Of a stretch of 64,000 nucleotides of DNA, positions 15,789 to 61,974 are shown one piece after another (the first letter of the stretch is position 1; each line of letters begins with the position of its first letter). A program made the translations under genes and the position numbers. The DNA comes from Schmidtea polychroa (lineage: Eukaryota). The stretch is taken from the NCBI GenBank assembly GCA_044892525.1, contig CM097887.1:61194001-61258000 (forward strand), in the 5' to 3' direction. The notes under the pieces are model-generated. The model was not told where the DNA came from. It saw only the letters and a list, made by a program, of their open reading frames with translations, and did no database searches.

Positions 15789-16894
15789 ATTAACCTCAAT
15801 ATACAAAAATGTATGTAGTCGGAATTAAAAATTACAAATTGTTTTAATGGAAATATTTTGGATAGCTATATTTTAGCGTATGCTTATCAGACAAGAGATC
15901 AAAATTTGTCAAAAGTTATGATACATATGTTTTGCTTCATAACGTCACAGAAAATTAATTTTTAGTTTTGTCACCCCAGTGTTATATTTTAGTTATATTT
16001 ATATTCTAGTTGTCGATTTGGTGTTATATTTTTCATTCTCTTAAAATTTTTTAAATTTAGTTAAATTAAAATCAAGAGTTTATTTCAATGTTCTGAATTG
16101 GCTGCACATATTATCATTAATTTGACTTTAATTGTAGAGGGTGAATTGCAGCGAATACATCTTTCAGGAGATTTGTATGGGATGGAAAATATAGTGTTTT
16201 TAAAAATTTCCTTAATAGTTCTAAAAAATATGAAACTCTAAATGAAAGTAATGAAACCAAATAACTAAGCCAATAAAATGGAATCCTAAATCAAAATTCC
16301 AATTTTCAATATCAATTTAACTTTAGATTTTAATTTCCATTTCTAATTAGTTTGAAATATTATTTTATTTCGATTATAAAAAATGTTTTTCCCGTGGAAT
16401 GTATGTATATATTCAGAGTATCAGTTCCTGATCCAGACCCAATAAAAACAATTTCTGACATGGGATACAACAGTTCAGATCAAAATTTGACGCTACTGGT
16501 AGATTGTAACTATGATATCCAAAGGTTTGTTGATGAATACCATAGAAGATCTTTAATGGAATAACAATCTATGAATTTTCTATTTATCAAATCTATACGA
16601 TCATTTGTCAAACAAAAATTTTAAATAAGAAGTCAATAATTTTATTTTTGATATAATATATAGAATTATTTTTAATCTTATAAATCAGTAGTTTCCATTG
16701 TATAGGTCTCAGGTATTTGTCTTGTATATGTCTTCACTTAGGCGAACTGAAGCCATCACCTCAGGGCGCCAAGCAAAATGGGGTGCTTATATTTAGTAAA
16801 TAAGAAAAAAATACTGGTTTTCTGTATACGAAAAATTAAAAAAAATCTTAAGTTATGTTGGGCTAGAACTGATTTCTAGACCCAAACTTATAAT

Positions 16895-17518
16895 TGTGAC
16901 TGAAATGTGTAGGTACACAACATGCAAAAAGCAAAAAGTATAGTTAAATAGTAAAATTACACCAAATAAACAATATTAATTAAAGGAGAAAACAACAAAA
17001 GCATAAACACAGAAATTAAATAAAATTATACCAAAAGCAAGAAGTTATGCAACATCGAACTCAAAAATAACCAAATAAACATAGAGTTACAAAAAACAAA
17101 CTCGAATAACTTAAAAGACGGTAAAAATAGAAAAAAAATTCCAGAAAAACCCAGAACATTCCATAAAAATGGCGATGACCATCACAAAAACCATCTAAAA
17201 CCATAAAAAGGAGAGAAAATAAATAAATTAGTATTAAAAATAAAAAAATCTTAAAAAGAAATTCGTAAAATATCAGTTAAAAATAAAAATTAAACTAAAA
17301 GTAATATGGAATGTTCTGGAACCGTTCCAAATCCATCATGGACGTAAAAATAACAAGAAATAATTAAAAAATAAAAATTATGGCACTAAAATTGCCATTA
17401 AAAATATCAAAACTACAAAATAGAAAATTCTGGAATAAAAAGAATTCGAGTTTGTTTTAATGCATCAATACATACACGTGTAGAAAATAGGTATATATAC
17501 CGACGCATTTTAGTCACA
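16895..17518. mobile_element. Putative solo LTR (TG...CA, ~620 bp)
   Basis: Terminal inverted repeat TGTGACTGAAAT / ATTTTAGTCACA (11/12 match). Strong strand asymmetry and GGAATGTTCTGGAA/TTCCAGAA motifs are typical of LTRs. No TSD found. Confidence 0.55.
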
Positions 17519-17669
17519 ATCAAATCTTTTTGTATGCCAAAAATTTTCGCAGCAAATTTAAACAACACCGAAAGTAAGGACTATTGTCTGCATATATTTT
17601 ATAATTGTTATCTTATTATTCTGTTTTATTATATTGATTATTATTATCTTTTTGTCTTTTTATTCTACT

Positions 17670-18000
17670 ATTACGAAACAAGAGTGACCAGCATCGTCGC
17701 TGACGGGTTATAGTCACGATACTGATCAGCCTTATTTCCAACTACTATTTCACATGCACAAATTCGGGTCTACGACCCTACATGCACAAAATTTCATTTT
17801 CTTTTAACCGGAAGGTCGCCACGAACAAATGGTTTCTAACCAGGAGTAGGGCGGGTAAATCCATCCAGGTAGTTGGCATAGTCGTAGGGACTATGCGGAC
17901 GAAATAAAATTTGGGAAAGTAATCGCGGGAAACATAATACAATAAGGCCTATCGTACCGTATTCAGTTGAGTCGGGAAAGTAGGAAAATTTTAATTAAAT
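17670..18000 (+). other. GC-richer, hairpin-dense non-coding island (structured leader?)
   Basis: Stems: GTGAC..GTCAC enclosing CAGC/GCTG; GGGTC-TAC-GACCC (17766-17778); GGTT-TCT-AACC; GCATAGTC-GTAGG-GACTATGC (17876-17896). Confidence 0.5.
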
Positions 18001-18356
18001 CGACCTTTCGGTAAATCACATACATAAAATGTACACTCAAACATTCTATGGGAAATACGTCATTAGGAACATCTAAACGGGAAATATCCCAGACTCAAAT
18101 TATCACAAAAGTTCTCAAGTAGTCGGCTAATTGCACAAACTATTATTCAGTATGCTCAATATTAACTATCATTAATAAACTACTAATATTATTTATAATT
18201 TTATTCAATCATAAATGTAATCTAGGCCACGTTCGATGGTGTATTATTATAAACTAAAATCATTTCGTAAAATTTTCATACTTACCTTCATATGTATTGA
18301 AATTTAGCTTATATAAAATCTTTAAAGATTTTTTTTGTGTGTCCTAATAATACCAT

Positions 18357-18773
18357 CATCTTTGGGATCATTATTATTATCATTATTAATTTTCTTAAAA
18401 TTACATTAATAAAGTTTATGTCATTACCCTATAATAGCATATATCAGTGTATTAAACTTTATTAATATATATTTAACTTACATTATGTTTAGAAAATTAT
18501 AAATTTTCTTAAATGACCCCCACCCCGAAATATATATTCATTACCCATTACACAAATATCCCAAATGAACTTATTCTAATATATATTTGGATTGTAGTAT
18601 GTTAAAAATGATAATTTATCAATTTTCATCTTAGGATCATAATTATTATCATTATTAATTTTCTTAAAATTACATTAATAAAGTGTATGTCATTACCCTA
18701 TAATAGCATATATAAGTATATTAGACTTTCTTAATATATATTTGACTTACATGATGTTTAGAAAATCATAAAT
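18357..18773. repeat. Direct repeat, ~147-bp block with 270-bp period
   Basis: CATCTT.GGATCAT...GTCATTACCCTATAATAGCATATAT...GTTTAGAAAAT at 18357 and 18627. Confidence 0.9.
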
Positions 18774-19904
18774 ACATAACTGTCCTAAATTACCTTATTT
18801 TAATTGTAACAGGTTAAAAAGGATAATTCGTAAATTTTCATAACTGCCCCTTGCACAAATTGACTTGTTGTAATATAGATTTAACTTGCAATATATCTAG
18901 AATAATTACTTATAAATTTTTATAAATGGCCCTTTTTGATTCCTATGGTCTTTAATGATTACCTAGAAGTATTTGTTTAATCTGCTTCTAGGCCTAGTTA
19001 GCTTACATTACTTTAGAAATATCATTGTATATCTCAGAGCGAAAAATGAGTCCATAACTTTCCGAAAATGATTCCCCGTATGTGGTAACCTTATAAACTA
19101 CGAATTTACATTTATTATTATTATCATCATTAGNNNNNNNNNNNNNNNNNNNNNNNNNNNNNNNNNNNNNNNNNNNNNNNNNNNNNNNNNNNNNNNNNNN
19201 NNNNNNNNNNNNNNNNNNNNNNNNNNNNNNNNNNNNNNNNNNNNNNNNNNNNNNNNNNNNNNNNNNNNNNNNNNNNNNNNNNNNNNNNNNNNNNNNNNNN
19301 NNNNNNNNNNNNNNNNNNNNNNNNNNNNNNNNNNNNNNNNNNNNNNNNNNNNNNNNNNNNNNNNNNNNNTTATTATTACTGCTATTAGTGTTGTTACCAT
19401 TAACATTTTCACCCTTGTCATTACCATTACTATTACCACTATCATTATTATTACGTTATTAAAATAATTATTATTTTTTTAAATTAAAATTTTAGCTAAA
19501 ATTATTGATTTTTGGGATCCCCCTATGTCTAAATTTAATCGCAATGACCCTACCCTCCAATAAAATTTCAGGAAACTACTGAAATCTATTTTTAGTAACA
19601 ACCCTCCCCCCCGGAAAACGACGTTAGGATCAATAATTTAAATTTAAGTTATGTAGTTATATATGGATATGTGTGTATGTCCGCGTCTGTACAAGTGTTT
19701 ACCCATATTAATAATAGCCTCATAGAAGTATGGTTGCCTCCCAGATCAACGGAGACTGAAACACTTTAGTTCCTTTATCTACCCCAGAAAAATAAAATTA
19801 TGCCGAAGTTACCTTAGAAAACTGAACTATTTGCTTAGGATTATTTAAAAATTAAAAAACTCAAAAATCTAGCTCAATTTATTAACCAAAATGACAAAGT
19901 GAAA

Positions 19905-20405
19905 ATGGAAAACGACATGAATAAATAGGAATACAAATTTAAATCACTTCGGAGGCTCGCTTCGCGAGAATTATCTGACCAATTACTCCCATCACTGTAA
20001 ATTCACGAGAACAACTGAACAATCCCTGAACCTCCTCGAGTGCAAGTAGTGAACTTAAAATTCCAGGGTGTAGACCCGAAATCTGAAATAATTATTAATT
20101 CCCAGCTATACCCTCGCAAATTCAGAACGCTGGCCTATTCTGAACTCCCATCAAACAGTGGCATCTCGAATTTATTATCTAAGTTGTCATCTTCAAATTG
20201 AAAAGTTTGGAGATTCATTTCTGAAATTATACAAATTTCAAAAATTTCAAAAGCTAATTTACCCGTTAAGTATCCATTGATGAGGGAGCTACTTACAACC
20301 ACTATGGTCAGGGATTCGCAAGAGCTGAATGTAAATTCAGACAATTTACAATATCCGCTTCCCATAGTGGGTCCTAGTAGTATAAATTTTGCCAAAAAAT
20401 TATAA
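19905..20405 (+). pseudogene. Degenerate orphan ORF (cassette gene B, 167 codons, 4 internal stops)
   Basis: One frame from ATG 19905 to TAA 20405 in a GC-enriched island. The N-terminal SLRRLASRELSDQLLPSL resembles a BC-box. The coding call is tentative. Confidence 0.35.
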
Positions 20406-20765
20406 ATAGAGAATTCTAAAAATTATTAAATGAAAGATAATATTTGAATTAGTATAAATTGGTATAAATAGTTAGATTAAATCTTTGAATGATTTAAACA
20501 ACCACTATTGGAAGTTTGATTTGTAAAATTTTAAATGCTCATTTCTACTGTATCAATCATTAGTTCATCGAAACCAAGCTCATGGATTTCCACTTTAAAC
20601 ATACGAACTGCAATTCTGTAACTGATACTTATAATTTGAATTTTATAATTCTCTAGCCAACCTGAATTACATCGAAAATCAAAAAGGGGAAAATTAATTG
20701 GCACATTAAGTTCATTTTTTCACCACCTAAAATATCATTGCAATACGGGTCACGTTTGAATTTAA

Positions 20766-21353
20766 ATGCAACAGTGCGTTAAACGTCTTGGGGTAACCAG
20801 ACGTAGACGAGCGAATAGAAATTTTACTAATATGTTCTCTTAATATCTCAGGCATGCCTACTATTAGCCCAGAAGACAGCCACGCGAATCCTTCGGCATC
20901 TACATCCAGACTCAACCTAAACCACGCGGAGGTAGACGAAGTCGTCAGATTGACCAGGAGGAAGAACTCACTCGCCTGAGGTCCAGGTGGATCTGGTATA
21001 AGATTCATGATTGGACCTACCAGAATGTGGTCCCGGTGATCCCGAAGGTGGAGCCGTATATCAACTATACTTCATTGGCTTTGAGCGACGCATTCGACGA
21101 TGCGAAGGAGGCGGTGGACCGGTTGCATCGGCTCGAAACATCAGTCCTGGCCGGCGAGCTGGAAGACATCGACGGCTACGCCCGAGCCCAATGCCATCCA
21201 AAGCGGACCGCAGCTCTTCGCCGGGGGCTGGAATGCCCAAGAAGTCCTCGACGGGGATCGGAACAGTTGAGAAAACGCGGGCGCCCACGAAAAACCGCCA
21301 GCTCAGCCAAGGAGATTACCGAACTGAAAACTAGCGCTGTACGACATCCCTAA
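20766..21353 (+). pseudogene. Orphan AT-hook protein gene (cassette gene C), probably spliced, with one early stop
   Basis: Frame open from ~20868 to 21353: PRRQPRESFGIYIQTQPKPRGGRRSRQIDQEEELTRLRSRWIWYKIHDWTYQNVVPVIPKVEPY...QLRKRGRPRKTASS. Candidate intron GTGCGT (20774) or GTAACC (20793) ... TACTAAT ... CTCAG (20851). Sequence is GC-rich. Confidence 0.55.
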
Positions 21354-21362
21354 CATCTGTGT

Positions 21363-21641
21363 TGTGACTGAAGTCTTGTGATAAAAATAATTATCATGTA
21401 ATGACTCCGTTATTAATGTACCTTGCGATATTGTGTACTGGGTTAGATCACTTTGACCCAGAATTAAAATAATATTCGTTATGTCTTAGTAGTTTGTATT
21501 TAGTTAAATGTTTGGTTGGGTTTTGGTTGTCGATATTAATTTAATTGTGTGTATTGCTTGATTCTTGGTAATGTTCTTAGCGTTAACTATTATTATTATC
21601 GACTACAATTTTCCGTAACATTGACAGCCGATAGGGTTTGA
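21363..21641 (+). mobile_element. Putative 5' LTR (21363-21620) plus degenerate tRNA-Ser-type PBS
   Basis: Begins TGTGACTGAA and ends TTCCGTAACA (imperfect inverted termini). It is followed by TTGACAGCCGATAGGGTTTGA, similar to the tRNA-Ser PBS TGGCGCAGTCGGTAGGAT of 17.6/297-type Gypsy elements. No second LTR seen. Confidence 0.45.
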
Positions 21642-21769
21642 TAAGATTCATAGAACTCGGTTTTGGTGCGCGTAGGGGAGGGCTGCGACGAGGAGATTAC
21701 ATTCATTTAGTATTAATAACGTGCGTCACTCAATGCTGAGGTGAAAATTTCTAATGTTGTTTATTTTAG

Positions 21770-22238
21770 TGTTAAAACTCCTGGAAGAAATGCGAGCAGA
21801 TAGAGAGAATAGAGAGAATACCGGGCCAAGCTGGCACGAATCAAGGCCCATTGTCGGAACTTCGAGAGTACCTGGTTCCCGCCAGTAGAGATGAAAAAGC
21901 GGATGAAACTGATCACTCAACTGCAACTCCAGAGTGCCCAAGATCAGGTTGAGTTGCGGGCCCTCCGCCTTAGAGTGAAGGAGCTGGAGATCAAAGTTCT
22001 CCAACAGGATCTCGACCGAGATGTCATATCCAAAGTCCGGCCCATGAGTGAGCTGCTCCACAACCCAAAGGAGCGCGCATCACTGAAAGTCCCGAGGAAG
22101 AAGATCCGACCGGGTAAAGCGGCGCGGGCGAGAATGAGACAAGCCAGCCAAGCCCAATTAACACATCATTCTGCGGTGTCAGAGCCTACTCCGAAGGAAT
22201 CATCCACGACACTAAAATTTTGGAATGTGTTCTCCTAA
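21770..22238 (+). pseudogene. Orphan coiled-coil/basic protein gene (cassette gene D) with E-x-TWF-x-P motif
   Basis: Candidate intron 21721-21769 (GTGCGT..CTAAT..TTTTAG). A frameshift occurs near 21810 (AGAGAGAAT duplication), then an open frame EYRAKLARIKAHCRNFESTWFPPVEMKKRMKLITQLQ...KELEIKVLQQDLDRD...RKKIRPGKAARARMR to TAA 22238. AATAAA follows the stop. Confidence 0.6.
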
Positions 22239-22477
22239 TAAATATTTATTGGTGTATTCATATCTGGGCATTTCGATTTTACCATAACGTTGATTATCAT
22301 AACGGGGACTAAAAGAAACCGGACATAGGCCTTCTATCGGCAGTCCGTGAACCCCAGTGGGTGCTAGACAATTATAGTATGCTAGGCATGCTCACTTTTT
22401 GCTAGTACCCAAACCCTTGATACAGTACCAACGTTGATTACTCAACGGGTATCAAGTGGTCAGCTATAAATTGTATC

Positions 22478-22539
22478 CTGGGTTACGCTGCAAACAGCAG
22501 GAGTAGGTAGAAACTTTGAAAGTACCTGTAACCCACCAG
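22478..22539 (+). ncRNA. Predicted compact three-way-junction RNA structure, function unknown
   Basis: GGGTTAC (22480-86) pairs with GTAACCC (22528-34), enclosing GCTG-CAAA-CAGC and AGGTA...TACCT hairpins joined by an AGGAGT linker. Confidence 0.4.
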
Positions 22540-22869
22540 TTATTTCGTATTTAAATTGTCAAAAAAATTTATCGGTTAATGGATTCTGGAAATTTTTTTA
22601 ATTAAATTAACGTAAATTTTAAATTAAAATAACATTTTAAATTATAAAAAACAATGTTAAATTTTTTTGAGATGGGGTGCAATAATATTTTTGGCCTGCC
22701 AGTTAGTCAAAGCTGGCCTTGGTAGGACTCGACTCATTGATGGGCAGCGTGCAAATTGAAAAATATTTTTTAGCAATGTATGCGCAATAATGGAATTTTA
22801 GACATTCACATAAGAATTACTAATTCTATTTAGTTACTTTGTATTTGTTTTCAAACTGTCAAGTTTTTA

Positions 22870-23400
22870 TTTTCAAAGAAGAGAAATCAAATCGAATGTC
22901 CTTGGCTTGGTAGATGGCAGGGCTTTCTCTATTGCTGAAGGAATTTCTAAAGTCCTCGATGAATTTCACCTATGGAATTCAATACAGATGATTGTTGAAG
23001 ATACCATAGCGTTAACACTGGAAAAAAGAATGATGTTGTTGTAATATTGCAACGAATGTTCACAGAGAAACGCATCAACAAACCTTAGTTTATCAATTGT
23101 CAACACCATGTATTAGATAGAATCCTCAGTTTGGTGATGGATGAAGAACTTGGAAGTAAAACACAATCGCCAAACATCGAATATCCATTTATATCTCAAC
23201 TGTTGAAGGAGTACGAACAACTGAAAACACAGTTTGATAACGGAACAGAAGTAATTCTCGAAACATCAGGCTGGAGAGATGATATGAAATTTTTGTTTCA
23301 TCTCACTCGAGTGTTCCGATTTTTTGAGGAAAAGTGACATTTTCCATTGATCAAGTTTAAGAAAATACCCAATTATCCGTCGCCTCAAATGTCATATTGA
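22870..23400 (+). pseudogene. hATm-like DDE transposase fragment
   Basis: Reads MIV.DT..(V)NTGKKN.VV..LQ...C QHHVLDRIL...SPNIEYPF...WRDDMKFL. The DTxxxNTG, CxHH and RDD motifs resemble hATm-type transposases. Frameshifted. Confidence 0.65.
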
Positions 23401-25407
23401 CTATGACTTTCGGATAAAAATTTTTCGTCAAAGATTGAAATTTCACGTTACAATAAAAATATCTATAATTACTCTTAAAATTGGTTTAGATTCATTACGT
23501 AAATAATTATTAAATTGGAAAATAACAAAAATGAAGTCATAAAATATTTATATTTGATTTTCACAATAACAAAATCCTGTTTAAAGATTGCATAAAGTTG
23601 AATATTTAAGAAAACTTAGTAAAAATTTCTGTAATCCAAATAAATAAAGTAATTATCCTTCAATACAAAATTATTTTGTTAAATTTATTAATGAGATAAA
23701 AGCACAATTAAGTTATCAATTATTTGCAAGTTAATAATACAAAAGTAATAAACAGTTTATTATTCATTAAACTATAAATGAAATCACAAATATTATTTAT
23801 ATTATTAAATTAATTAATTTTAATACAATCCATTTGCAATATATCATTTAACAATATGCCATTAAAATTGAATATTAAAACAATTTTCAATTCAAGTAAT
23901 TTTTTTTTCAAGGTAATTTAAATTTTAAAATATAAATTTAGCAAACAGCTATATTTATGTGAATATCCGACGCATACTAAGTGCAATAAATTAAAAATCT
24001 GCATTTTTCAGTACAACATGCATGACAATTGGTTACTGGAAGTTGAAATCTTAAAAAAGTAAATTTTGGTGCAACGCTATTTCTCATAAGACCTAAAATG
24101 AAAAAAAACAAAATGATTAAGTTATTTAAATGATAAGCTATTTAAACTTAACAGAATTCAGGACCATATGATTTTTGAAAACAATTTTCACACAATTTTA
24201 TGAAATAACAGAACAACAATATCGTTATTTTCAAATTCATTAATTAATTTTCTAAAATTAATAATAAATAAAATAAAAACAATATTCTTACATGTTAAGC
24301 AATAAATTAAGTTTATTATGCCATTGAAACGAATTATTATAAACCATTGATTTTATAAATAATATTTTTTAAAAAATTAATAATTAGTAATATTGTTTCT
24401 CAAATTTAAATTAATGTTAAAATTTACGGTCAGTTTAAATGCTATTGAAACAAGCGTTAAATTTCGAATAATATCTCATAAAATTTATTTTGTAAGATAT
24501 TAAATTAATCAATTTATAATTACATTTTTTTATATTAAATTATTTAAATTAAATCTTGGTGTAGTTTATAACTAGGTGCATAAATACTAAATTGACAATT
24601 ATTTTCGTCTGTGGGGTATTTTTTAAGTGAAACGCAATTAGTGGACATGGTATTTTGTTTAACGTTAAAATGAATTAATTCGAATGAAATGTTCCAAAAA
24701 ATTATGGCACCAATCATATGTATTACAAAGTTTTACGAAAAGTGAACATTATTTATAAATGGTCATGAATCAGTTCTTGACAACAAAATTGTAGGGTATT
24801 AATTTTAAAAAATTGTTTGAAAAAAGACCATTAAAAAGGTAAATGTAAAGTTGCCTAATTTATTTTTTGAGTAAAGAGTTACCGTTAATTAACTTGGAAT
24901 AAATATGATTTTGTGAATTATTCTAGGATTTTGATTATTTAATCATTGCCACCGATTTAAATAAAAATGTGGTTGTGATATTTATACAATTTAGAATATC
25001 GTTGTGATTTTCTGTTTTTGTCAAGACGCTTCTAGCCATGTTACATCTATTCGCCCATAATAAACCATTTTAAACCCAAAAATATTTATAATTCTACTAG
25101 TGTTGTTGAATAAGTATTAAACATTCAGTGGTTTTGTTGAAAAATTATGATGATAACAATTATAAACCTGATCAAGTCAATATAAGATCAAACTAATAAA
25201 ACATCAACAAATACAAATTAAATTACAGAAATAGTCATTTTTGAAGAAATATAAAATAATAAGAATTGTAAATACAATAAATTGAAGAAATAAAAATTGT
25301 TAATATATTAAAGATAAATTCAAATTTTTTTAGGGCAAAATTATACACAAAACATTAGCTTAATTTTAAATATAAACTATTTCTATGACTTTATTTATAT
25401 ATATTAA

Positions 25408-25640
25408 CCCTTTCCTATTTTGTGTCTATAAAAATATGACAAAAAAAAATTAACCATTAGACCAATGATTATGCCCAATTGCAACTTGCAAATCGTCAGC
25501 TTCTAAGACACTCCATCTGGAAGAAATGGAAGACAATTTCAGTTGACGAAATGAAAAAAAATAATTTTTTCAAAATTTTTAAAAAATTTTATTAGGATTG
25601 GAACGGGTGGGACACATAAAATAAAGAAGATAGGAAAGGG
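25408..25640. mobile_element. piggyBac-type MITE
   Basis: TTAA|CCCTTTCCTA ... TAGGAAAGGG|TTAA. Confidence 0.85.
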
Positions 25641-26163
25641 TTAAATCATTTTTTGAAACATCAAAAATATCTTCGGAACTAGGAATAATTTCCTTTTAAA
25701 TGTTAAATTACGGTCGTATTTATTGTGTTGAATTTTTCCTATTCACGGTATACCGTCTTTCAAAATGACACATAATAAAAAATGCACACAAACCTAATAT
25801 TGAGAAAAGATATTGAAATTTAGCATTAAGACGCAAAAATTGGTATATAAAGGTGAGTCTCAGATCACAATTAATCACTTTTATTAAATCAAAATTCTTA
25901 ACTGTTTTAGCGAAATAAACCTTCAATAACTTCAACTAGTTTTGACTTTCATACGTATCTGTTTCATTTCAATTTATTTTTGATCAAATGCATTTGGGTA
26001 ATTTTCATTTTTGATTGTATTTTATATACTTGTAGTGATTTTATTGTAGTGACTGTAATTTATATACATTAAAATTTCAAAATTAATTATGGTCGTTCTT
26101 TTTTAAATAGTTAAATTCAAGATTTTATAATCGTATTTGTTTTTATTTTTTTATTTATGAAAG

Positions 26164-26565
26164 ATGCAGGTCGACAAAAATCAGTATTCTTATGATTTCT
26201 ATATAAACAATCAGGAACCTTTTGATGTCAGCAAGTCAGGGAACGTTTTACGTATTCCCAATTCGATGACACGAGAAGGTTTCGATCATACAGTAGATGG
26301 TCGTGCCGAAGTCCTCTAAATACAGACCACTTGCGATCACTCTCTGATCTTTTTATTAAATTCACAGCGATTCAGTTATCACAAAAATCTTCATAACAGC
26401 TGAGATCGAATCTAGGTAGGGTAAATTAGAATTTATGGAACAGTACTTCAACATGGTGAAAATTCTGTATAGTGACTTCGTAGGGTTAGTAGAGTATATA
26501 CCATTATTTTTCGTAAAGATTGGAGTACTATCAACAGTCAAATTAGGCATGTTCCACCCTATTTA
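26164..26565 (+). pseudogene. Possible degenerate orphan coding island (cassette gene E)
   Basis: GC-enriched island with broken + strand frames (MQVDKNQYSYDFYINNQEPFDV...; FMEQYFNMVKILYSDFVGLVEYIPL). No recognisable domain. Confidence 0.25.
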
Positions 26566-26853
26566 TTATTACTATTATTATTAATAGTATGGTTATTATT
26601 TTCATCATTATTGTTGTCATTATTATATTTACTAGTATTATCATCGTCATTATTATTACTAATTTTTATAGCCTTACTATCCCTAGCATTACAATCTTGA
26701 TCATTATCATCAATTTTTGGCTACATTATTTACTTTTTTTTCTAGAATCCTCATTATTGTAAGCATCACCGCTCTTAGGATATCTATGAGTAGCACTATT
26801 GTTCGTATTGATATTTATATTAGGATTATTATCATCAGTACTGTTAGTAGTAC

Positions 26854-26894
<41 letters not shown>

Positions 26895-27790
26895 TTATTA
26901 GGATTATTTGTATTATCATTGTTGTTATTATCCTGCTTGTGATTATCCTTATTATTATTACTATCATTTCTATAATCACCGGTAGTATTATAACTATCAA
27001 AATAAGGATTATTACTACTATTAAATTCTATTAATATTATCATTATTATGAGTATTATTAATATAAGGATGGTTTTTGCTAGTATAATTCGCCTTAGTAT
27101 TATTATTATAAGACTATTATTATTATTAAAATTAGTGTTATTAATATTATCATCAGTGCTCGAAGTGGAACAAAATATGTGCCGGGATAGGCATGCTGTG
27201 GCACCCGGGATTCCAGGCTTTTATGCAGAAATTTTCAGTTGGGGGTGTTGCAAAACTTTGGGGGGTGTCCAACAAATTTTTTTTGGGGGGGGGTGTCCAC
27301 CCATTTAATCATAAGTTTCAGGGGGTGTACCTGTTTTAATGTGGGGGGGTGTCAAACAATTTTGGGGGGTGGGTAAATCCCTGCGGGATTCTCATTTTTA
27401 ACCAAGCAAAATGACAGAGATTTTTTGCATGTGTAAATTTGTCTGATAAATAATCGGAAATTTTGTTTCAAATATAAAGCGTCAACGTCTTACTCTGATA
27501 GTCCTTTTGGTAATAGCCCATTTTCTCACATTACCCCAAAAAAACTGCAAATTCACTTAACTTATAAAATGATTAGGCTATAAAATGAAATAAGTACCGG
27601 GATAAACCTATAGATTATATGAAATGAAGTGCCGGGATGCAATTCCGCCTACATAATCAATGCCGGGATAATATCCCGGCTATCCCGCCTCACTTCGAGC
27701 ACTGATTATCATCATCCTCACCCGCCATACTAGTATTTTTTTATTATTATCCTTCAAATTATCATAATGAGTATAATTTATTGGGTATGA
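26565..27790. repeat. Degenerate (ATT/ATC/GTT)n low-complexity tract interrupted by a MITE; a similar tract lies at 19100-19460
   Basis: Trinucleotide-periodic, T-rich on the + strand; the source of the poly-Ile and poly-Asn ORFs in the track. Confidence 0.85.
27154..27704. mobile_element. hAT-type MITE with perfect 8-bp TSD
   Basis: TIR CAGTGCTCGAAGTG / CACTTCGAGCACTG. TSD ATTATCAT at 27146-27153 and 27705-27712. Internal GCCGGGATA and GGGGGGTGT repeats. Confidence 0.93.
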
Positions 27791-28276
27791 GTACCATTTT
27801 CATGATAATTAGGACTAAATAGAGTCGTCACTCCCTTGTGACCAGTATTAGTTTTTCTTCCATAATTTGTATGAGGTATTTTCAGCTGGGAATTAAATAT
27901 TTCAATTATTTATTAAGATAATATTAAATGATAAATAATGAACATTTAAAATAAGTTTTAAAATAAGTTTTAAATTAAAAAGAGATTTTGTTAAAGATAA
28001 ATTTTATATAAATACATTTTAATAGTAAATAATTTTTAAATAAATACATTCGTTTAAAAATTATACAATATTTCATTAAATAAATACTTGTTATTATGAC
28101 GTTATCTTTTGAACCTGATTTAAAAAATAATTTAGATGATGTTCTAGCAGCTTCTAATAATCTATATTACTATTTTCCTTAATGTAGTAGACTGAAAACT
28201 TTGATTAATCTAAATTTCTCTTTGAGATGTTATACGGTCTTTGACCTGCTATGAATTTATATCCTTTTCATTTTAG

Positions 28277-28797
28277 TAATTAAATACAAATCGACAAAGA
28301 ACGTTTTGAGACCATCTTTTTCCTGCGCAAATAAGAACGCGCAAAACGCCGTGCTTCGGGAGGAAAATATACTCTTGCGCACCAAGATTGATAGGCTTGA
28401 GGGGACATGGTTTACCCCAGGCCAGGTGAAGGAAGCAAACCAGAAGGTGTTCCAACTAGAAAATTGTCGGGACAACCTTATTGAGGAAAGTCACACAAAA
28501 TATGCCTCGATACAGGAGTAAATGCAGGCTATGTATCAAGTCTACACCCAAAACGAACTCTAGGCACAGATCCAGAACCTTTCATCTGTGTTCCAAGCAA
28601 ACCCCATACCTGCCCACCATCTGGCATATGACACAGTGGCTGCCAGATCTTCGGCCAAGTGAGGGGTTCTCAATGTTGGTTTTGAGTCCTTCAGCACTAA
28701 TAGCCCCATTGTCGAAGACCTTCGCAAAATCGATTGTGGTGAGTTTATGTGCCACCAATCCTCCAATCAATATGACGCCACCATGACCGAAGCGTAA
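28277..28797 (+). pseudogene. Orphan coiled-coil protein gene (cassette gene H), paralog of gene D, 3 internal stops
   Basis: After acceptor CCTTTTCATTTTAG (28276), a single frame reads ...NAVLREENILLRTKIDRLEGTWFTPGQVKEANQKVFQLE...SIQE*MQ...NEL*AQIQ...SSAK*GVL...TMTEA*. GC-rich. Confidence 0.6.
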
Positions 28798-31053
28798 ACA
28801 AATATCTAGATCTGAAAGAAACTTCAGGAAGCGGGCATAGCAGGCCGCCGCACAGTTTCCTGGTTAATTAGGTCAACTTACCCGAAATCAACATGCATAC
28901 TTTTTGCATGGATTTTTCATGGACGCTAGGAGCAAACAATCTGATTAGCTTTGAACATTTACCATTAATAGATTTTTGATTATTGATTTCGATTTTTTTA
29001 TTTATTAAATTAACAATATTCAAACAAATTAACAACTAATAATCGTAATCAAACTGTATCAAACTGAAAGATATTTTAATAACATTTTGAAAAACATTTT
29101 TTTAATCATATAAAAATTATTTTAATTTTAAAAATGCACAAATTGTTAACATTCTCAAACAAAAATCTTTTTTAAAATTAATATAAAAAATAAATTTAAA
29201 TTTAAGAATTAAAAATTGTTTAATACAAAAAATTTAACAAACAACAACATCATCCCAAATATTAAAGATACAGGTTAAATTATTTAAATACATTCAAAAT
29301 CACTATAGACTGACCACTTTGAATTAATATTCAACAAAACAAAACTGTTTTAAAAATGTTCAATATTTGTTTGGAAATTGCAAAACAAACATACAATATT
29401 AAAAACTAAGATAAATGAAATACATTAAATTTGGTCATTTGAAAAACTTTTAACTAATTTAATTAACTGGGGTCACGAAAATTTTTTTGTAAATTTTTTG
29501 GGCACAAAAAATAGTTTTGGAAACGCTGATTTAAGTTATTCTAAATATAATAATATTTTGGATTTAATACAGAAATATGAATTAAAATTATTTAAATATG
29601 AATAATAATGTGGTAATTTCTAAATCCTTGAGAAGACTAATTAGCCAACTTCGAGTCATCCGATGGAGCTAAAACTTGACAAACAGATAATGCATTTTAT
29701 TAAATGAGTCTCATTTGTAGAATCCCATTGACTATTTTACGGAACCCATTTTGAAGACCAATGATCTAGTTAAAGTAAGAATATTGAGAGTTTATGATAT
29801 GTCTACGGAATAGCTTATGTTGGAATTTGAAAAATGATACAAGAGTGGTTTTATTTTCAAGAAAAATGTTTTTTTTTGATATATTGCCACATTTAAGGCA
29901 TTCTTTGTTTATATCTATGGCTAATTGGGCAAGTACATCTTTCTCTTCACTTTCACTTTCACAGCCTTTGGTGGATTCTAATATTCTAATTATTATTTTC
30001 CAGCATTTGTAAAAGTTGAATTAAATAAATACTAAAATAAATAAATACTAATAAATAAATACTANNNNNNNNNNNNNNNNNNNNNNNNNNNNNNNNNNNN
30101 NNNNNNNNNNNNNNNNNNNNNNNNNNNNNNNNNNNNNNNNNNNNNNNNNNNNNNNNNNNNNNNNNNNNNNNNNNNNNNNNNNNNNNNNNNNNNNNNNNNN
30201 NNNNNNNNNNNNNNNNNNNNNNNNNNNNNNNNNNNNNNNNACATAACTACAAACAAGTTTGATGACAATGTAATTAAATGATCTATTCTCTATAATGACA
30301 ATGCAAATATATACAGAATACAAAAGATAAAAACATTCTCCACAACTTGTACCAGTAATTATCAGCAGGACTCGAAAGAAAATTTTATCAACTTTGAACA
30401 AGTTAGATTGCGGAAGTCAGCATCAAAAAACAATAAGTAAAGAAACAAATCATAATATCTTCATTGTCCTAAACGTCAAAGATATTGAGCTATGTATAGA
30501 GTAATTTTATCAATGATTAAGATGCCAGATAGCTGAGTGGATTGTGACATTTTGAGTAGTTGACAAAGTCAGTTGGTTGACTCCTCCATTAAATGAATAA
30601 GGTTTAACTGCGTGACCAACGATCTTTTTTCCATCTAACCAACTATTGTTTCACTGAGATTTCAGGCCGTACACGTGCACAATATCACCATAAATGCATC
30701 GTTGTTTCTAGTACATTTCAATCATCTATTTCGGAAATCCGCCGTTAATTCTCCACACAATAATTGATGCCATTGTTCTATCTAACTAACCTCTCTGTTC
30801 GTATTTCCGCTTTGATATTCTTACAAAATAACACATGAAACTAATTCACAATCAATTTACGAAAATAAAGAAGCATCTTCAGTTTAAATTGATAAGTATG
30901 TTAATTTAATTATTATTTATATTTCAATTTGTCAAATTAATGAGACTGCTACTTAAATTTTCAAGAAATTACATTTCCATGTTATAAAATGTAAATCAAA
31001 ATTGGAATGTAGTTTTTAAATTTTTAATAAATTTTGTTGTCTATTATCTTTAA

Positions 31054-54859: not shown

Positions 54860-56310
54860 TTAGGACAAAAATTTTAGCCAACAACATTTATTCATTGTTT
54901 TCATCATTTCATTCTGTAGTAATTTCAAGACTAACTTGGACTTGAAATTTGATTTCGTAAAAGATTTGAAAACATAGGCCAAATACATAACTACTCTACT
55001 GAAAACCAAGCAGGCACCGCATTCGGCAAATGCAACATTGAATGAAAGAGTCGCATCGTAAATTAATCCTACAATTGGAGGTCCAATTAGTATGAAAAAT
55101 GTCACGTCTAATTTATCCTCACCAAATATGTCCACCAATACCACAGATGACAAAGTAACAAATGCACCGGACATCATTCCATAAAAGAAAGTGTAACCAA
55201 TCATTAAAATAAACATTTTTATTCCCCAACTAACAAGCAATGCTAATTCACTCAACACAACCGTTGCGTTGTAGATATGAAATCATTTTAAGCGTTTCAT
55301 CGTTGCTAAATATCCGAAACCCACTCTACCGAATCGGTTTCCAATTCCGATTGATAAAATGAGAAAGCTTCCTTTACTGTTACTGATCCCATTCTGAATT
55401 GCTCTATCCTTTGCAAACATATAAGGCGCATTGAACGCGATGTTTGAAAATACATTTGAAATCAGAAATAAAATGAATACGGAATTTTTCAACATTGCAA
55501 TATATGATAGTAAGGAAAACGTATTCAAGGTTGTCTTTAAGTTTTTCATCACTCTCTTCAACATTTACATTTGACATTTGTTTCGATAATAATGACAACT
55601 CGATATTTTCTTTTTTCTCATTTATGTTGTCTTTTGTGGCATTATTTTCAGGCTGTGAATTGTTACTTTCAAAGTTACAGTAAGAAGCTGAACAAAGTGC
55701 TAAAATCAGTATCATTAAACCAGTTATTAACATTGCTTGTTGCCAGCCACCTTTTGTTAACAAAAACTCAATATACGGACTGAAAATGAAAGTTCCGAAT
55801 CCTGATCCACAAACTGCGATCCCAATTGCAAATGAGCGCTTCTTATCAAACCACATGTTTACAATTAGAATCGAAGGTAAATAGATCAAACGAAATCCGA
55901 TTCCACAAACTACAGAAGAACTCAAAATCAGAAACCACATTTCACTATAGGAATATGGCGCTGCGAGTCCGACAGTAGGTATAATAGTTCCGGCTATTGG
56001 AATTGACTTGTAACTAAATCTTCGACATAAGTAACTCGTGATGGGAGAAACGAGGAAGATCACAGCTACTAATATTGACCCCATCCAACCCACTGTATTT
56101 CTGGATATTTTATAATGTTTGATATATTCTGTTGTCAAAACCCCATAAGATTAAACGATTCCATCACTGATCAAATGAGAAATGAAACTCGCAAGTACAA
56201 TTACCCATCCCCATCTTTGATCTTTTATGTACTGTTTTGTTTTTGATCCACTTCCGGATGCGTCCTTATGATCCTTATCAACATTCTCTTCGACATTTTG
56301 ATTATTTATT
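54860..56310 (-). pseudogene. slc16a: Monocarboxylate transporter (SLC16/MCT, MFS) pseudogene, intronless
   Basis: WGWVIVLASF..H.I.DG, YLCRRFSYK, YLPSILIVNMWFDKKRSFAIGIAVCGSGFGTFIFSP, GRVGFGYL, GPPIVGLIYD. Disruptions: premature TAA at 56151-56153, a frameshift near 55540, in-frame TGA at 55283-55285 and an apparent deletion in the late TM region. Confidence 0.9.
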
Positions 56311-56929
56311 GTCGTGTTTTATTAATTAAATGGAATATTTTAACAAAATTCTCAGATTGGTAGGCTGTAAATTTGACGAAGTTAAAGAATATATTAATTT
56401 GTTTTATTAAGGCAAACGAAATGAAATTGATAACCATGAATATTGATGATATCCAGAAGTATAAAAAAGTAGGATTTCCTGATTCATTTGAAGAAAGAGA
56501 ATGCACCTGGCTCCCTTAAGAAAGAATAAATTTTGTTATCTACAAATCAGATTTAACATAAAATAGTTGGGACACAATAATTATGATCTGTGACTAGAAT
56601 GGAANNNNNNNNNNNNNNNNNNNNNNNNNNNNNNNNNNNNNNNNNNNNNNNNNNNNNNNNNNNNNNNNNNNNNNNNNNNNNNNNNNNNNNNNNNNNNNNN
56701 NNNNNNNNNNNNNNNNNNNNNNNNNNNNNNNNNNNNNNNNNNACGGCAGCAATAGGGGGGGGGGGGGGGGTAAAAAATGTTGCAAACTTTTGATTGCATA
56801 ACTTTTTCCGTAGACATTTTTTGATTACACAATTGTTGCCGTAATGCCCAATGTTTTCTGGGATTTTAAATACAAAATTTTTTTTTTTTTTTTTTTTTTT
56901 TTGTCAATAAACAAGCCAAGGATAAATAT

Positions 56930-57882
56930 TATTTGGGTGGGTCTCCTTGGTCCTGAGAATTTCAATAGAAAAAGGTAGTCTTCAATAAAAAAGCATGGAT
57001 TTTTCACACTATAGTGAGGGGATCTTCTTGGTCATGAGAATTTCAATAGAAAAGGTGGTTTACATTAAAAAACGCATAGTAAATTTTTAAAATAAAGCAA
57101 ATTATGGGTCTAAAATTTAAAAATAAAGTAAATGATGGGTCTAAAAATTTAAGTAAATCAAGGTTCAGATTTATTTTTGAAATAAAGTAAATTATGGTCT
57201 AAATAAGTAAATTATGGGCTAAGATTTTTCAATTAAAGTAAATAATGGTTCTAAAAAATTAAATTACAGTAAATTATGGTCCAAATTTTTAAATTAAAGT
57301 AAATTATGGTTCTTAAAAATTAAATTAAAGTAAATTATGGTCAAAATTTTTGAATTACAGTCCAAAAATTTAAATTAAAGTAAATTATGATCCAAATTTT
57401 TAAATTAAAGTAAATAATGGTTCTAAAAAATTAAATTAAAGTAAATAATGGTCCAAATATTTTAAATTACAGTAAATAATGGTTCTAAAAATTAAATTAC
57501 AGTAAATAATGGTCAAAAATTTTAAAATTAAAGTAAATTATGGTTCTAAAAATTAAATTAAAGTTAATTAAGGTCCAAATTTTAAAATTAAATAATCAAT
57601 GGTAAAAAAAAATTTAAATTAAAGTTAAATAAGTAAATTAAAGTAATAATTTTTAAATAAGTAAATTAAAGTAATGTAATAAGTAAATTAAAGTAAGATT
57701 TTTAAATTTATTAACAAAAATAGAAGGTGTTTGAGAATTGAAATTTTTTAATGGAAATTTTAATGAATTATTTTTTAAGTAATTTTTAATAGAAATTTTT
57801 ATGAATAATTTTCAATGGTAATTTTTAATGGAAATTTTAATAGAATAATTTTTAAGATAATTTTTAATGAAAATTTTTATGA

Positions 57883-57932
<50 letters not shown>

Positions 57933-58075
57933 TAATATTAATAATATATCAACCAAATACTATACAACACATAAAAAATTAACTAAACACATAAAAATAA
58001 CTAGACACATAACAAAACATATAAACATTAACTAAACACATAAAAATGAACTAGACACATAACAAACATAAAAAT
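56930..58075. repeat. Series of tandem repeats downstream of polB
   Basis: Two ~75-bp copies (CTTGGTC.TGAGAATTTCAATAGAAAAGGT); ~30-bp units TTAAAGTAAATTATGG(TCC/TTC)... at 57080-57620; AATTTTTAATG units; (AAT)n at 57885-57935; ACACATAA units at 57965-58070. Confidence 0.9.
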
Positions 58076-58119
58076 TTACCAAATAACAAATGTAAAGATA
58101 TAAAATTTATTCAATAAAA

Positions 58120-61100
58120 TTAGTCCTCATCGGACAAAATAACGTCATCGATATCGATGTCATCTTCTCCAAAATCTTCATTTAATTCTTCCTCATCTTC
58201 TCCAACATTTTCTGAAACATTTTCTGCAACAATTTCTCCAACATTTTCTCCAATATTTAATTCACTTAATCTTACATGCCCATATGCAAGACTAGTATTT
58301 TTCCCCACCCAAACCCTTTTGTCATCTTTGTTAGTTAGTGCTATTTTTGTGTTTTTAATTGTAAAAATTTGATGATTTTTGCTTGTTATTTTAGTCTGAG
58401 GAACCGAAAAAATCTGGTTAGTGTTATAACAATCCAGGTATGACTGATGTTTTATGTCACTACCTTTCAATGTTACACCTTTAGCCTTTTTTGTTTCCTC
58501 ATCACTCAACAAGCTATAACATTTAGGTCTAAGAAAAACCCACTCCTTATATTTAAGACCTTTATTCTCGTCTTTGAACTTTCCAATGACTGAATCAAGG
58601 TTCTTACTATATAAGGAATGACAACTATTGTAACTGGAAGTATCCAATAAATTATCTCGAACCATTGCAGGTAAAAGAACCTCAAGTTTGCAGTTAATGA
58701 CTTCGAGGAAAAAAGAATCTGTATCACCTGCAACGATATTAATTTTACAATTAAACTCATTGCGAAATGATTCCAGATCCTTATATTGCAATTCATACAT
58801 TCTAAGTTTAGATAGATCAAGTACAGATTGACCAATGTAACTCGGTCTATCTAAACATATAGAATCTGAATTCAATAGTGCTGCAATTAAATTATCTGCT
58901 ATTTTAATAGATTTTTTAAAAGTCGGTTTTGACGAATATTTAACTAATTTACCGGCAGTTGTACAAAGACGAAGATTCATTCTTCTCTTTAAATTTTCAA
59001 CTGTTTTGCCGTATAAACTATTATTTAGCAATTTATAATAATTTTTATCTAAGCTATTTACGCTTTTTGATCTTAATTCGGTATTTGTATCTATATATTT
59101 TTTAAAAATTGGTGATTGCTTAAATCTTACACCCCTATTTACACGTGTTACTTTAACACCAAGTTCCAAATATAATTTTAATAATCTCCAATGAATAACA
59201 TAATTAGATTTTGGAAGATGAGTTAATAATAATTTTTCAACCTTAGACCCAGCAGGTTTCATTTTTTCAGCAGCTACAGGGAAATCATCCAACTTATCAT
59301 GAAGCTCAGAAGGAATTACAAGATCAACTTCAAGTGTGTATCCATAAGACAAAGATTCAAGATTTAAATTCCTACATTCATCCATTATTTTATCAAATCC
59401 ATCAAGAACCCAACAAAATTCGCCACAAGGTAATGATTGACTTAAAGCCCAGCCATAAAGATTATTAATATCTATATATAGTAACTCGGTGTTCTCGTCG
59501 GTTTTTACGTAATGCTTATTCACAAAAGTAAGACCGCCTCTTATTCCACCCTCATAAAAGCTAAACATTTCGTTTTCAGTTATGAGTTCAATTGGTTCAT
59601 TTAAAGACATTAATGCAGAAGACCAAGACATGCCTGGAATTCCGAAATAATTCAATGGTTCCAATCTATTGTGAGCAATGGATTTCAACCGAAACTGATG
59701 AAAGAAATCAGCCAAAAGAAAACAATCAAGTTTTAGGTAGATCATCATATAATCTAATAAAGTTACGCAATTAGTTTCTACCCAAATCTCCTGAGCTTTT
59801 TCATACTCAAGCTCAGTGACACCCTCCCAGATTGGTGGTAATTCATAAGTAGTTTGGAGAATATCTAAAGAAGTGGCGAAATTATAAGGGAAGATTCCTT
59901 TTTCACTTACTATGGTGCCAGAAAAAGCAGAATTAGTAAAAGGCAAAGAATTCAAAGTTTTGACTGCTTTAGCCAAAGAATCATTGACAAATTGATACGA
60001 ATCAATGAATCTTAGGCTAATTTTACCTAAATGAGCAATCAAAGATATAAATTTTTCCGTAGTTATTGGGATGCACCCTAAATTCCAATTTTTAAATTTA
60101 TTTAATCCATATTTAAGTATATGGTGCATATCGTATCCCTTCAAGTTGTGAAATACAATAGGCAAAATTTTATTTATTTTTCTATTTACGTTACATGTGC
60201 TACAAGCTGCACCCAAGTATTTCCCCATAAAATGATCGTGATCTCTAACAGGATCCACGATAGATTTCAAACAAAGATAACAATCCGTTGAATTAATGAA
60301 TTGTTGTTGCTCAATTTTCGTTAATTTAATCATTGGTTTCCTACCCATTTTATAATAAAAAGGAAGAACCTTATTTAATGCTATATCCTCTATAGCACTT
60401 AAAAAACTCTCGACGCAATCTAAACCTATGAACTGCTGATAAGATTTAGATCCGTCAAAGTTATTTACTAGTAAAAGACCAGCAGATATTGGCATGTGTC
60501 GCTGAAAATGATCATTATCAGAAGGTAAAATAGCCTCAAAATCGGCATAAACTACAAAAGGAGGAGTTACTGTTTTCGACCAGTCAGTAAACTGTAAGAA
60601 TTTATTTTGAGGGAAAGTATAAAGAGTTGTTCCTAATTGATTACGTTTGCATAATATTTCATGTTTTTCTAGTGCGTTTCTATTATTAAACCCATTCAAA
60701 CACCGATGGCACCATAATGAACGTATGCGTGTAGGACAAGTAGTGTTGATACCACAATTCAATAACCTATTTAAATTGCTTATAGCAACGTAATGGAAAT
60801 TGTTCCCTTTATTTAATAATAGTAAATTAATTACAGTTCCATTTAAAACTTTGGAACGATGTATAATGTCTAAATGTGGGTGTTTTAAAACGTAATTATC
60901 TATTAATTGTTTGTTATTGTCATAAGAAAAAACGTTAATTATTAAACCAAGATTTTTGGCCTCGAATTTTCTAATATCTTTTAATTTCATGGGTAAGTCC
61001 AATGGATTATATATTAATTCAGATAAATTATAACTGGATGTCCTATTTCTAGCATAACTACTAACCTCATCATATTTTAAAATAGCTAAAATGCTATATA

Positions 61101-61731
61101 AAAAACATGAATCATCGGTGTTTTTTATATTAATTAAACAATATTTATTTTTTAGATAAGTAGGTAGTTCAATGAAACTCCTACCACTTAATCTACTTAG
61201 CCTACTTATCTTTGTTATGGTGAAGTGAATTTCTGTTATTTTTTTTATGATCCAGCTACTTCCTAACTCTGTGATATTACTTATTTTCTCGTTTAGTTCC
61301 CTAATGCCTTCGTCAAAAAATGATGCAGTTAAAGGCTTTGCATAATTTGAGATATTATTAACCTTTATTTCCCCGTCTTTTTCAAATTCGATTGTTATTC
61401 CGAATTGAATTTTGACGGAGCCTAATTCGTTAATAATATCTCGTAATTTTTTTATTAGTTGTTCAGGAAATATTATTTCTTTTATATTTAAGTCGCTTGT
61501 ATTTAAGCTTAATATTTGATGGGTACCTCTTAGATCTTTTTGTATTATTGGAACATTTCCACCTATTTGTATTATATTTAATCCATCCCAAGAGTCAAGG
61601 GAAATATTATCTAATCCGACCTGGGATTCAACAACCAATCCATCATGGGATTCGACAACCAATCCATCATTGGATTCCACAAAAGGCAATCCGACCTGGG
61701 ATTCAAAAGAAGAAGTATCTAATTTAATTTT
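58120..61731 (-). CDS. polB: Protein-primed family B DNA polymerase of Polinton/Maverick/adintovirus type, with endonuclease VII-like His-Cys domain; apparently intact
   Basis: Uninterrupted frame of ~1200 codons. N-terminal SFIELPTYLKNK..INIKN.D..CFLYSIL. Exonuclease motifs VYADFE, FHNLKGYD, YLKLDC. CYLC...VRDHDH..G.YLGAAC..CN. Polymerase motifs YIDINNLY, KLLNNSLYGK, GDTDS, GKFKDE, KAKGV. Acidic C-terminal tail. The true start is uncertain because there is no ATG for ~230 codons. Confidence 0.95.
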   Translation of the reverse strand, partial: KIKLDTSSFESQVGLPFVESNDGLVVESHDGLVVESQVGLDNISLDSWDGLNIIQIGGNVPIIQKDLRGTHQILSLNTSDLNIKEIIFPEQLIKKLRDIINELGSVKIQFGITIEFEKDGEIKVNNISNYAKPLTASFFDEGIRELNEKISNITELGSSWIIKKITEIHFTITKISRLSRLSGRSFIELPTYLKNKYCLINIKNTDDSCFLYSILAILKYDEVSSYARNRTSSYNLSELIYNPLDLPMKLKDIRKFEAKNLGLIINVFSYDNNKQLIDNYVLKHPHLDIIHRSKVLNGTVINLLLLNKGNNFHYVAISNLNRLLNCGINTTCPTRIRSLWCHRCLNGFNNRNALEKHEILCKRNQLGTTLYTFPQNKFLQFTDWSKTVTPPFVVYADFEAILPSDNDHFQRHMPISAGLLLVNNFDGSKSYQQFIGLDCVESFLSAIEDIALNKVLPFYYKMGRKPMIKLTKIEQQQFINSTDCYLCLKSIVDPVRDHDHFMGKYLGAACSTCNVNRKINKILPIVFHNLKGYDMHHILKYGLNKFKNWNLGCIPITTEKFISLIAHLGKISLRFIDSYQFVNDSLAKAVKTLNSLPFTNSAFSGTIVSEKGIFPYNFATSLDILQTTYELPPIWEGVTELEYEKAQEIWVETNCVTLLDYMMIYLKLDCFLLADFFHQFRLKSIAHNRLEPLNYFGIPGMSWSSALMSLNEPIELITENEMFSFYEGGIRGGLTFVNKHYVKTDENTELLYIDINNLYGWALSQSLPCGEFCWVLDGFDKIMDECRNLNLESLSYGYTLEVDLVIPSELHDKLDDFPVAAEKMKPAGSKVEKLLLTHLPKSNYVIHWRLLKLYLELGVKVTRVNRGVRFKQSPIFKKYIDTNTELRSKSVNSLDKNYYKLLNNSLYGKTVENLKRRMNLRLCTTAGKLVKYSSKPTFKKSIKIADNLIAALLNSDSICLDRPSYIGQSVLDLSKLRMYELQYKDLESFRNEFNCKINIVAGDTDSFFLEVINCKLEVLLPAMVRDNLLDTSSYNSCHSLYSKNLDSVIGKFKDENKGLKYKEWVFLRPKCYSLLSDEETKKAKGVTLKGSDIKHQSYLDCYNTNQIFSVPQTKITSKNHQIFTIKNTKIALTNKDDKRVWVGKNTSLAYGHVRLSELNIGENVGEIVAENVSENVGEDEEELNEDFGEDDIDIDDVILSDED

Positions 61732-61974
61732 TTAATTTTTATTATTTTTTTCTATAGTTGAGGGTCTTTTAAAAACACTATCTTTTTTAAAATTAAACCT
61801 ATCTAAATGATTTTTATGTTTATTATAAAAAACGCTATATGTTACGGGGTCACTAGTCTTACATACGGGACATATTTTAAAACACATTTTGACGCTAAAG
61901 TTGACTTATTTAACATTTTCATAATAATTTAATAAAAATAATGTGATGAACCCACAAAGTAATATCATTTTTCA

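Follow-up and report, generated by a model that had tools for sequence, protein, structure and literature searches.

In a 64,000-nt stretch of the Schmidtea polychroa genome (contig CM097887.1, positions 61,194,001–61,258,000; hereafter the window), we found what is very probably a solo long terminal repeat (LTR) of a giant Gypsy element of the Burro type, encoding two genes under purifying selection, open reading frames (ORFs) ORF2 and ORF3. The explanation as a whole, which joins the solo LTR and its two genes to a model of their expression, has in our estimate a probability of about 0.75. The element is known and its genes within the LTR are apparently unreported; no description of ORFs in Burro LTRs was found in the literature surveyed, and the original Burro descriptions, their figures or their supplements may already show them. 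The window copy of both genes is probably dead because both frames are broken. The genome searched comprised 781 Mb in 1,012 contigs, in which the window is G000:C3:61194001-61258000. The parts of the LTR, numbered within the window, are listed below; a slash marks a predicted splice site.

16856–22538, + strand: solo LTR from a giant Gypsy element of Burro type; length 5,683 bp, counting a run of N; ends TG...CA; GTTA target duplication
16856–17510, + strand: conserved 5' block, putative U3; follows the element interior at 90–96% identity
17492–17580, + strand: TATA-like box (17492), initiator-like motif (17510) and conserved donor A/GTAAG (GT at 17574); putative promoter and leader exon
17763–18110, + strand: non-coding block, richer in GC; a distant LTR family without the two genes has it at 81% identity
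18356–18794, + strand: tandem duplication of ~270 bp; common to sibling LTRs
19900–20420, no strand assigned: 19.9-kb island, lineage-specific LTR sequence; stop codons in common; unsupported as a gene
20852–21353, + strand: ORF2; acceptor, 2 nt, then ATG at 20854; helical protein of 118–167 aa with AT-hook-like RKRGRPRK; frameshift near 20950 in the window copy
21770–22238, + strand: ORF3; exon opens with TG right at the acceptor; ~145–155 aa, long coiled coil and basic helix
22237–22242, + strand: AATAAA, candidate poly(A) signal after ORF3; in 4 of 7 aligned LTRs
22305–22538, + strand: conserved 3' block adjoining the primer-binding site (PBS) position; hairpins

The LTR has the termini TGTTGG...CCACCA and carries GTTA on either side. 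With positions 20700–22600 as a DNA query against the genome, 40 of 2,708 candidates were scored, and these included nine near-full copies other than the window's, at 95–96% identity. The flanks of three copies bounded the shared unit at 16856 and 22538, and four copies had the same ends in unrelated flanks. A 4-bp target duplication was present in nine of the ten solo-type copies with both ends available. Exact patterns matched 2,708 LTR starts, 380 junctions from interior to LTR and 388 from LTR to PBS (reversed controls, zero); subtracting junctions from starts leaves very roughly 1,900 LTRs that are solo or damaged. By standard LTR biology, a solo LTR would have arisen by recombination between both LTRs of an integrated copy, and it is because of this solo-LTR formation that reverse transcriptase and integrase are missing here. 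A 5.7-kb non-LTR DNA element was considered and rejected on the PBS and the paired LTRs. In the tenth solo-type copy (C2:163.635–163.641 Mb), a 4-bp duplication appears only when the end is moved out by 4 nt, to the following CA of the LTR–PBS spacer, as though integrase had cut at a second CA.

The first-pass annotation had started its region at 17670, 800 nt inside the LTR, and had read five islands from there onwards as one accessory-gene cassette of an undescribed giant element or of an endogenous DNA virus. The islands are co-oriented, and those at 21.8 and 28.3 kb are paralogous, as had been claimed (hhalign 91%, E 9e-7, 37 columns). Sibling copies, however, stop exactly at 22538, with target duplications; four copies have only 16856–22538 in common. 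The relatives of the downstream islands are all old, with termini of their own. Because the shared unit ends at 22538 and the 26.2- and 28.3-kb islands have old relatives only, the islands do not travel together. Moreover, the interior linked to this LTR type is a retroelement gag-env-pol, described below, and not a set of endogenous DNA virus or Polinton-like genes (pPolB, capsid, packaging ATPase). The single-cassette interpretation is thus already refuted for the 17–22.5 kb part, and for the region as a whole we give it almost no credence. The region is a young solo LTR (16856–22538) plus a fragment of an older LTR-like family (25834–28996). What survives of the earlier proposal is that accessory coding sequence belonging to a giant Burro-type Gypsy element is decaying here; the undescribed element, the single cassette and the DNA virus do not.

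The interior was reached through an element on contig C1, in which the window's LTR type occurs once ahead of a tRNA-like PBS and once after a gag-env-pol interior, the two being 94–99.6% alike in blocks. We take the PBS behind this LTR to be tRNA-Pro-like. The C1 interior contains zf-CCHC, MATH, Monjiviricetes fusion glycoprotein, RNase H, integrase, ankyrin, TRAF and BIR domains, and a weak ubiquitin-like match (E 0.007); Pfam gave no match to protease or reverse transcriptase in this broken interior, and the domain order is otherwise the same. Over ~19.8 kb it is 92–94% identical to two full-length copies of 35.1 and 35.8 kb, whose LTR pairs are 99.98% and 99.8% identical, respectively. In one full-length copy there is a frame of 4,791 codons comprising gag knuckle, MATH, fusion protein, protease, reverse transcriptase, RNase H, integrase and ankyrin, as well as extra ORFs with RING, TRAF-MATH and BIR-RING domains (Pfam). 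No BCL2-, dUTPase- or SUMO-like domain was returned by Pfam at E 0.001 in that copy; the published dUTPase- and SUMO-like calls for Burro were made with HHpred (PMC6431247, in excerpt). The sequence ahead of the 380 LTR starts is conserved but is not a purine-rich polypurine tract.

These features identify the element as Burro type, by its domains, size and description. Burro/GYPSM1 are planarian giant Gypsy-like LTR retrotransposons (Jurka 2007; Grohme et al. 2018, both as cited in the excerpted PMC6431247). According to the same excerpts, they likewise exceed 30 kb with LTRs, have a 25-kb interior and occur in thousands of copies. They share one huge ORF1 (4,873 aa published, against 4,791 stop-free codons here), a CCHC gag, MATH, the protease–reverse transcriptase–RNase H–integrase series, ankyrin, BIR and RING, and a mononegavirus-like fusion protein placed between gag and protease (PMC6431247).

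Several observations concern relatives of this element. A conserved GC-rich motif, and no purine-rich tract, stands ahead of 3' LTRs, and the motif occurs also in a distant family. A young 21.5-kb relative (C1:139387172-139408647) has LTRs 99.9% identical, only a 1,572-aa gag-like ORF, and LTRs without ORF2 or ORF3; it probably represents a non-autonomous family. Nesting was also seen: one 22-kb copy is inserted within ORF2 of a window-type solo LTR, and another is in reverse orientation in a gag region. An apparent element with two different LTRs proved to be a nested insertion.

We translated 15 LTR sequences and found ORF2 open in 11 and ORF3 open in 10; the window copy is frameshifted in both, and its ORF3 has a short deletion and frameshift near 21810. 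Among the first 12 PBS-adjacent loci, ORF3 was present in 11 and ORF2 in 10, and these 12 LTRs have almost no DNA in common with the window LTR beyond its ends. Across LTR lineages, both proteins are 35–40% identical. The ratio of nonsynonymous to synonymous divergence (dN/dS) was 0.04–0.30 for ORF3 in all 19 unsaturated pairs (of 45) and 0.03–0.39 for ORF2 in 30 of 31 (of 55). Counting against this result, the remaining ORF2 pair gave 0.74, the rows had been selected for being open, and the pairs are not independent. Even so, these patterns argue strongly for both as real LTR-encoded genes under purifying selection. ORF2 and ORF3 are not paralogs of each other. One LTR (locus L080:5214-6100) carries ORF2 twice in tandem.

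The islands differ in composition and in coding support. All five exceed the window background of 27.5% GC (19.9 kb, 36%; 20.85 kb, 56%; 21.77 kb, 52%; 26.2 kb, 37%; 28.3 kb, 46%), and only three are strongly GC-rich. The earlier call of + strand genes held for the 20.8- and 21.8-kb islands, which are open in sibling copies. It failed for the 19.9-kb island: the best + frame contains five stops, of which siblings share two or more, and the ratio of nonsynonymous to synonymous differences (pN/pS) is 0.53–0.77 in the two most open frames. We therefore rejected the 19.9-kb island as a gene on either strand.

Both genes are predicted to open at a conserved phase-1 splice acceptor. All 24 usable ORF3 rows open with YAG/TG (of 27, 3 were excluded for mis-anchoring or deletion). 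For ORF2, the opening is YAG-NN-ATG in 24 of the 27 rows that could be used (of 30, 3 were excluded); among the three exceptions, one has lost the ATG and two, from one copy, deviate. Only 23 of the 1,010 ATGs in the window have this context. In six of ten aligned genomic ORF3 rows there is no Met before about codon 45, and ORF3 therefore needs an upstream exon. The short introns proposed earlier were borne out in their acceptors, which are conserved ahead of both genes; no conserved donor lies near enough for a short intron before ORF3. A donor-like GT was found 57–76 nt ahead of ORF2 in some lineages only, and a short intron there is possible. Further upstream, 18 of 22 distinct 5' blocks have GTAAG behind the TATA-like box, with A before it each time, and three of the remaining four blocks have another GT donor after A by eye. 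A spliced leader ending in AUG is known from flatworms; spliced-leader trans-splicing was rejected, as such a leader would be out of frame with ORF2 and ORF3.

A similar arrangement was observed in the interior of a full-length copy, where five of eight ORFs have YAG 0–3 nt ahead of the first ATG, compared with 71 of the 1,010 window ATGs. This YAG is kept in other copies having these ORFs. The interior thus likely yields a retrovirus-like set of spliced accessory RNAs, as judged from these motifs.

A placement of the start site would connect these signals. On balance, we expect that transcription would start ~650 nt into the LTR, and that a ~60-nt leader ending in A would splice to either acceptor (17573 to 20852 or to 21770). 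For ORF3, the splice junction itself would make the AUG (A/UG); for ORF2, the leader A would fall at −3 of its own AUG. The genes would lie downstream of the start site, in R/U5, and an intact solo LTR could therefore express them alone.

The pattern of divergence along the element bears on this placement. Lineage-to-lineage identity is mostly 0.90–0.97 over the interior end and the first 600 nt of the LTR, and then drops to ~0.5 where the TATA, initiator-like and donor motifs lie. The two full-length copies have identity of 0.89 over the last 200 nt of the LTR and 0.97–1.0 past the PBS. Comparing the window's LTR type with others, synonymous difference was 0.235 in RNase H–integrase versus 0.73–0.87 in ORF3. 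The middle of the LTR is far older than the interiors carrying it, and therefore must have been exchanged. Transfer of the first strand can take place between molecules (PMC12789967, in excerpt). A jump from one packaged RNA to another at this step would join the entire gene block to a different interior: provided that U3 is the first 650 nt, a single such transfer would exchange all of the stretch between start site and PBS. We consider this combination of promoter, splicing and exchange plausible, with the odds tilted slightly in its favor.

The same solo LTR could alternatively hold its genes in a long U3, like sag of mouse mammary tumor virus (MMTV) or nef of human immunodeficiency virus (HIV), with genome transcription starting near 22.3 kb. 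Both exons would then be reached by splicing from interior donors of full-length copies, and solo LTRs would be silent for both genes unless the 17.5-kb motif were an internal promoter. Consistent with this, the final 230 nt are conserved and structured (two-sided change in 7 of 55 predicted pairs) and of ordinary R–U5 size, U3 coding has precedent (PMC12789967, in excerpt), and the YAG ahead of five of eight interior ORFs means that upstream donors could serve all. However, no conserved TATA stands before the 3' block. The TATA, the initiator-like motif and the donor instead cluster exactly where lineages diverge, and the TATA is retained even in a family only 68% identical there. Swapping the middle block would also take two template switches at recurring places, as opposed to one ordinary strand transfer. 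We therefore regard a long U3 as unlikely and favor the start site near 17.5 kb.

Several observations weigh against our explanation. The sole element found with the exact LTR type of the window, that on C1, is rearranged by a nested insertion, lacks ~1.4 kb of its interior, and has mismatched outer flanks (CTAG versus CTTT). The TATA-to-initiator spacing is merely ~20 nt, the start and poly(A) sites are predicted from motifs, and the AATAAA after ORF3 occurs in just four of the seven LTRs. The single database relative of ORF3 carries an unspliced genomic N-terminus. Finally, contigs of four sequencing runs over 19400–22700, whose RNA labels are guesses, showed no joint at the predicted acceptors, a result uninformative on expression; no intron was seen in these contigs and no leader among the loose ends shown. 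One run had a T-run loose end at 22302 that may be genomic, and it was not used as evidence.

The proteins themselves offered limited clues to function. ORF2 is helical, with R-x-R-G-R-P-R near its end invariant in all 11 rows; its AT-hook Pfam score of 15.7 falls under the cut-off of 17.4, a point against the AT-hook reading. The ORF3 prediction has a pair of long helices, with the break at a conserved TW-x-P turn, and then a basic helix. AlphaFold models of ORF3 and ORF2, in that order, showed long helices only, with predicted template modeling (pTM) scores of 0.35 and 0.24. The profile and structure searches proposed at the outset found the kinship of the 21.8- and 28.3-kb frames and no family or fold for ORF2 or ORF3. 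There was no match over the cut-off in Pfam, none below E 0.03 among Protein Data Bank (PDB) sequences, and none below E 0.001 in a viral fold search. In the ESM Atlas, ORF2 had no match and ORF3 only generic coiled-coil matches. A search of 1.84 billion proteins with ORF2 gave three matches, each an artefact of repeats or AT hooks, and the only database relative of ORF3 belongs to the same family. No relatives were found among longer proteins, which is weak evidence.

These searches bear on whether the ORFs are host exons that were captured and are mere passengers in the LTR. Both have acceptors, as host exons do. However, neither has a relative beyond the element, all other matches being coiled-coil or AT-hook low complexity, and selection across synonymous saturation argues for a role in the element. 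We thus consider captured exons very improbable. An element with many acceptors must still get unspliced RNA packaged. By analogy with the regulatory proteins of complex retroviruses, our best guess, held at well below even odds, is that ORF2 might regulate the LTR as a nuclear DNA-binding protein of the AT-hook type, and that ORF3 might be a basic, oligomeric RNA-binding protein that helps in handling the unspliced genomic RNA.

To the right of the solo LTR lie the following features, including two miniature inverted-repeat transposable elements (MITEs).

25408–25640, no strand assigned: piggyBac-type MITE, in TTAA
25834–28996, + strand: decayed inner fragment of an older LTR-like family; other copies have TGTTG...CAACA; neither end found in the window
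26165–26560, + strand: 26.2-kb island, short coding-like remnant of the older family
27154–27704, no strand assigned: hAT-type MITE; 8-bp duplication; sits in an ATT tract
28267–28800, + strand: 28.3-kb island, broken ORF3 paralog of the older family; acceptor-like site upstream

The 25834–28996 segment is an older, related LTR-like remnant near the young LTR and in the same orientation. Relatives of its two islands are only 67–85% identical, except for one 84-nt piece at 95%, and the 26.2- and 28.3-kb sequences are linked in the older family through shared neighboring segments. Copies of this family begin with TGTTGGGCTA, as the young LTR does, and end with CAACA, and two of five paired copies have a 4-bp duplication. 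A recognizable 5' end was found at 11 of 30 loci, with no upstream flank in common, and a PBS was found behind none of 16 3' ends. Because no interior was found, the family is LTR-like by its ends and kinship only.

Both MITEs had been noticed in the first-pass annotation and were confirmed here; their class names, piggyBac and hAT, we take from their termini. A reported hATm remnant was not supported, as no transposase match was found (Pfam; loci compared). The same hAT-type MITE family occurs in the ATT tract of the older remnant and in that of a young LTR (locus L046:1524-2152), which suggests that the family prefers ATT tracts.

Elsewhere in the window, positions 56743–61875 hold an element with a 1,203-codon ORF, with a 98.6% copy at C1:139.41 Mb. 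This ORF had no Pfam match and has what we take to be family-B polymerase-like motifs. A separate Gypsy pol fragment with RNase H and integrase lies at 585–2210. On the − strand, 54860–56150 contains a broken, intronless membrane-transporter-like ORF, presumably of the monocarboxylate-transporter kind.

Genes within the Burro LTR would mean that solo LTRs, usually taken as inert promoters, may still make proteins. The near-identical interiors versus the saturated LTR genes suggest diversifying pressure, for example from silencing by PIWI-interacting RNAs (piRNAs). As a tentative synthesis, to which we give somewhat less than even odds, the Burro LTR would be a self-contained, exchangeable two-gene unit. 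A short-U3 promoter would drive a leader whose alternative splicing reaches either of two regulatory genes in a 5-kb R/U5, one start codon being made by splicing, and strand transfer would shuffle diverged alleles onto near-identical interiors. If so, many dispersed gene copies with the potential to be active would be among the ~1,900 LTR starts that lack an exact interior junction. To explain how an RNA of 30 kb with many acceptors governs its own transcription and export, the LTR genes would likewise be the leading candidates. Existing planarian RNA data can be used to test the predicted junctions, whose positions are exact. Burro is abundant in planarians, and its BIR-RING gene is said to support stem-cell survival (PMC13465017, in excerpt and second-hand).

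Compared with known systems, the element differs from Burro/GYPSM1 as published in that the excerpted account names no ORFs, introns or subfamily exchange within LTRs (PMC6431247). The plant element Ogre similarly has long LTRs (1.9–6.5 kb) and additional ORFs of unknown function, but its extra ORFs lie in the interior, and env, BIR and MATH are unreported for Ogre in those excerpts (PMC6431247). MMTV sag and rem exon 2 and HIV-1 nef are, like ORF2 and ORF3, accessory genes within an LTR and are made from spliced RNA, splicing being predicted in the present case (PMC12789967, in excerpt). Unlike ORF2 and ORF3, sag and nef are coded in U3, and no sequence relation between them and ORF2 or ORF3 was found (PMC12789967). 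Here, by contrast, two genes lie in a 5–6 kb Gypsy LTR and, from the motifs and the divergence pattern, probably downstream of the start site.

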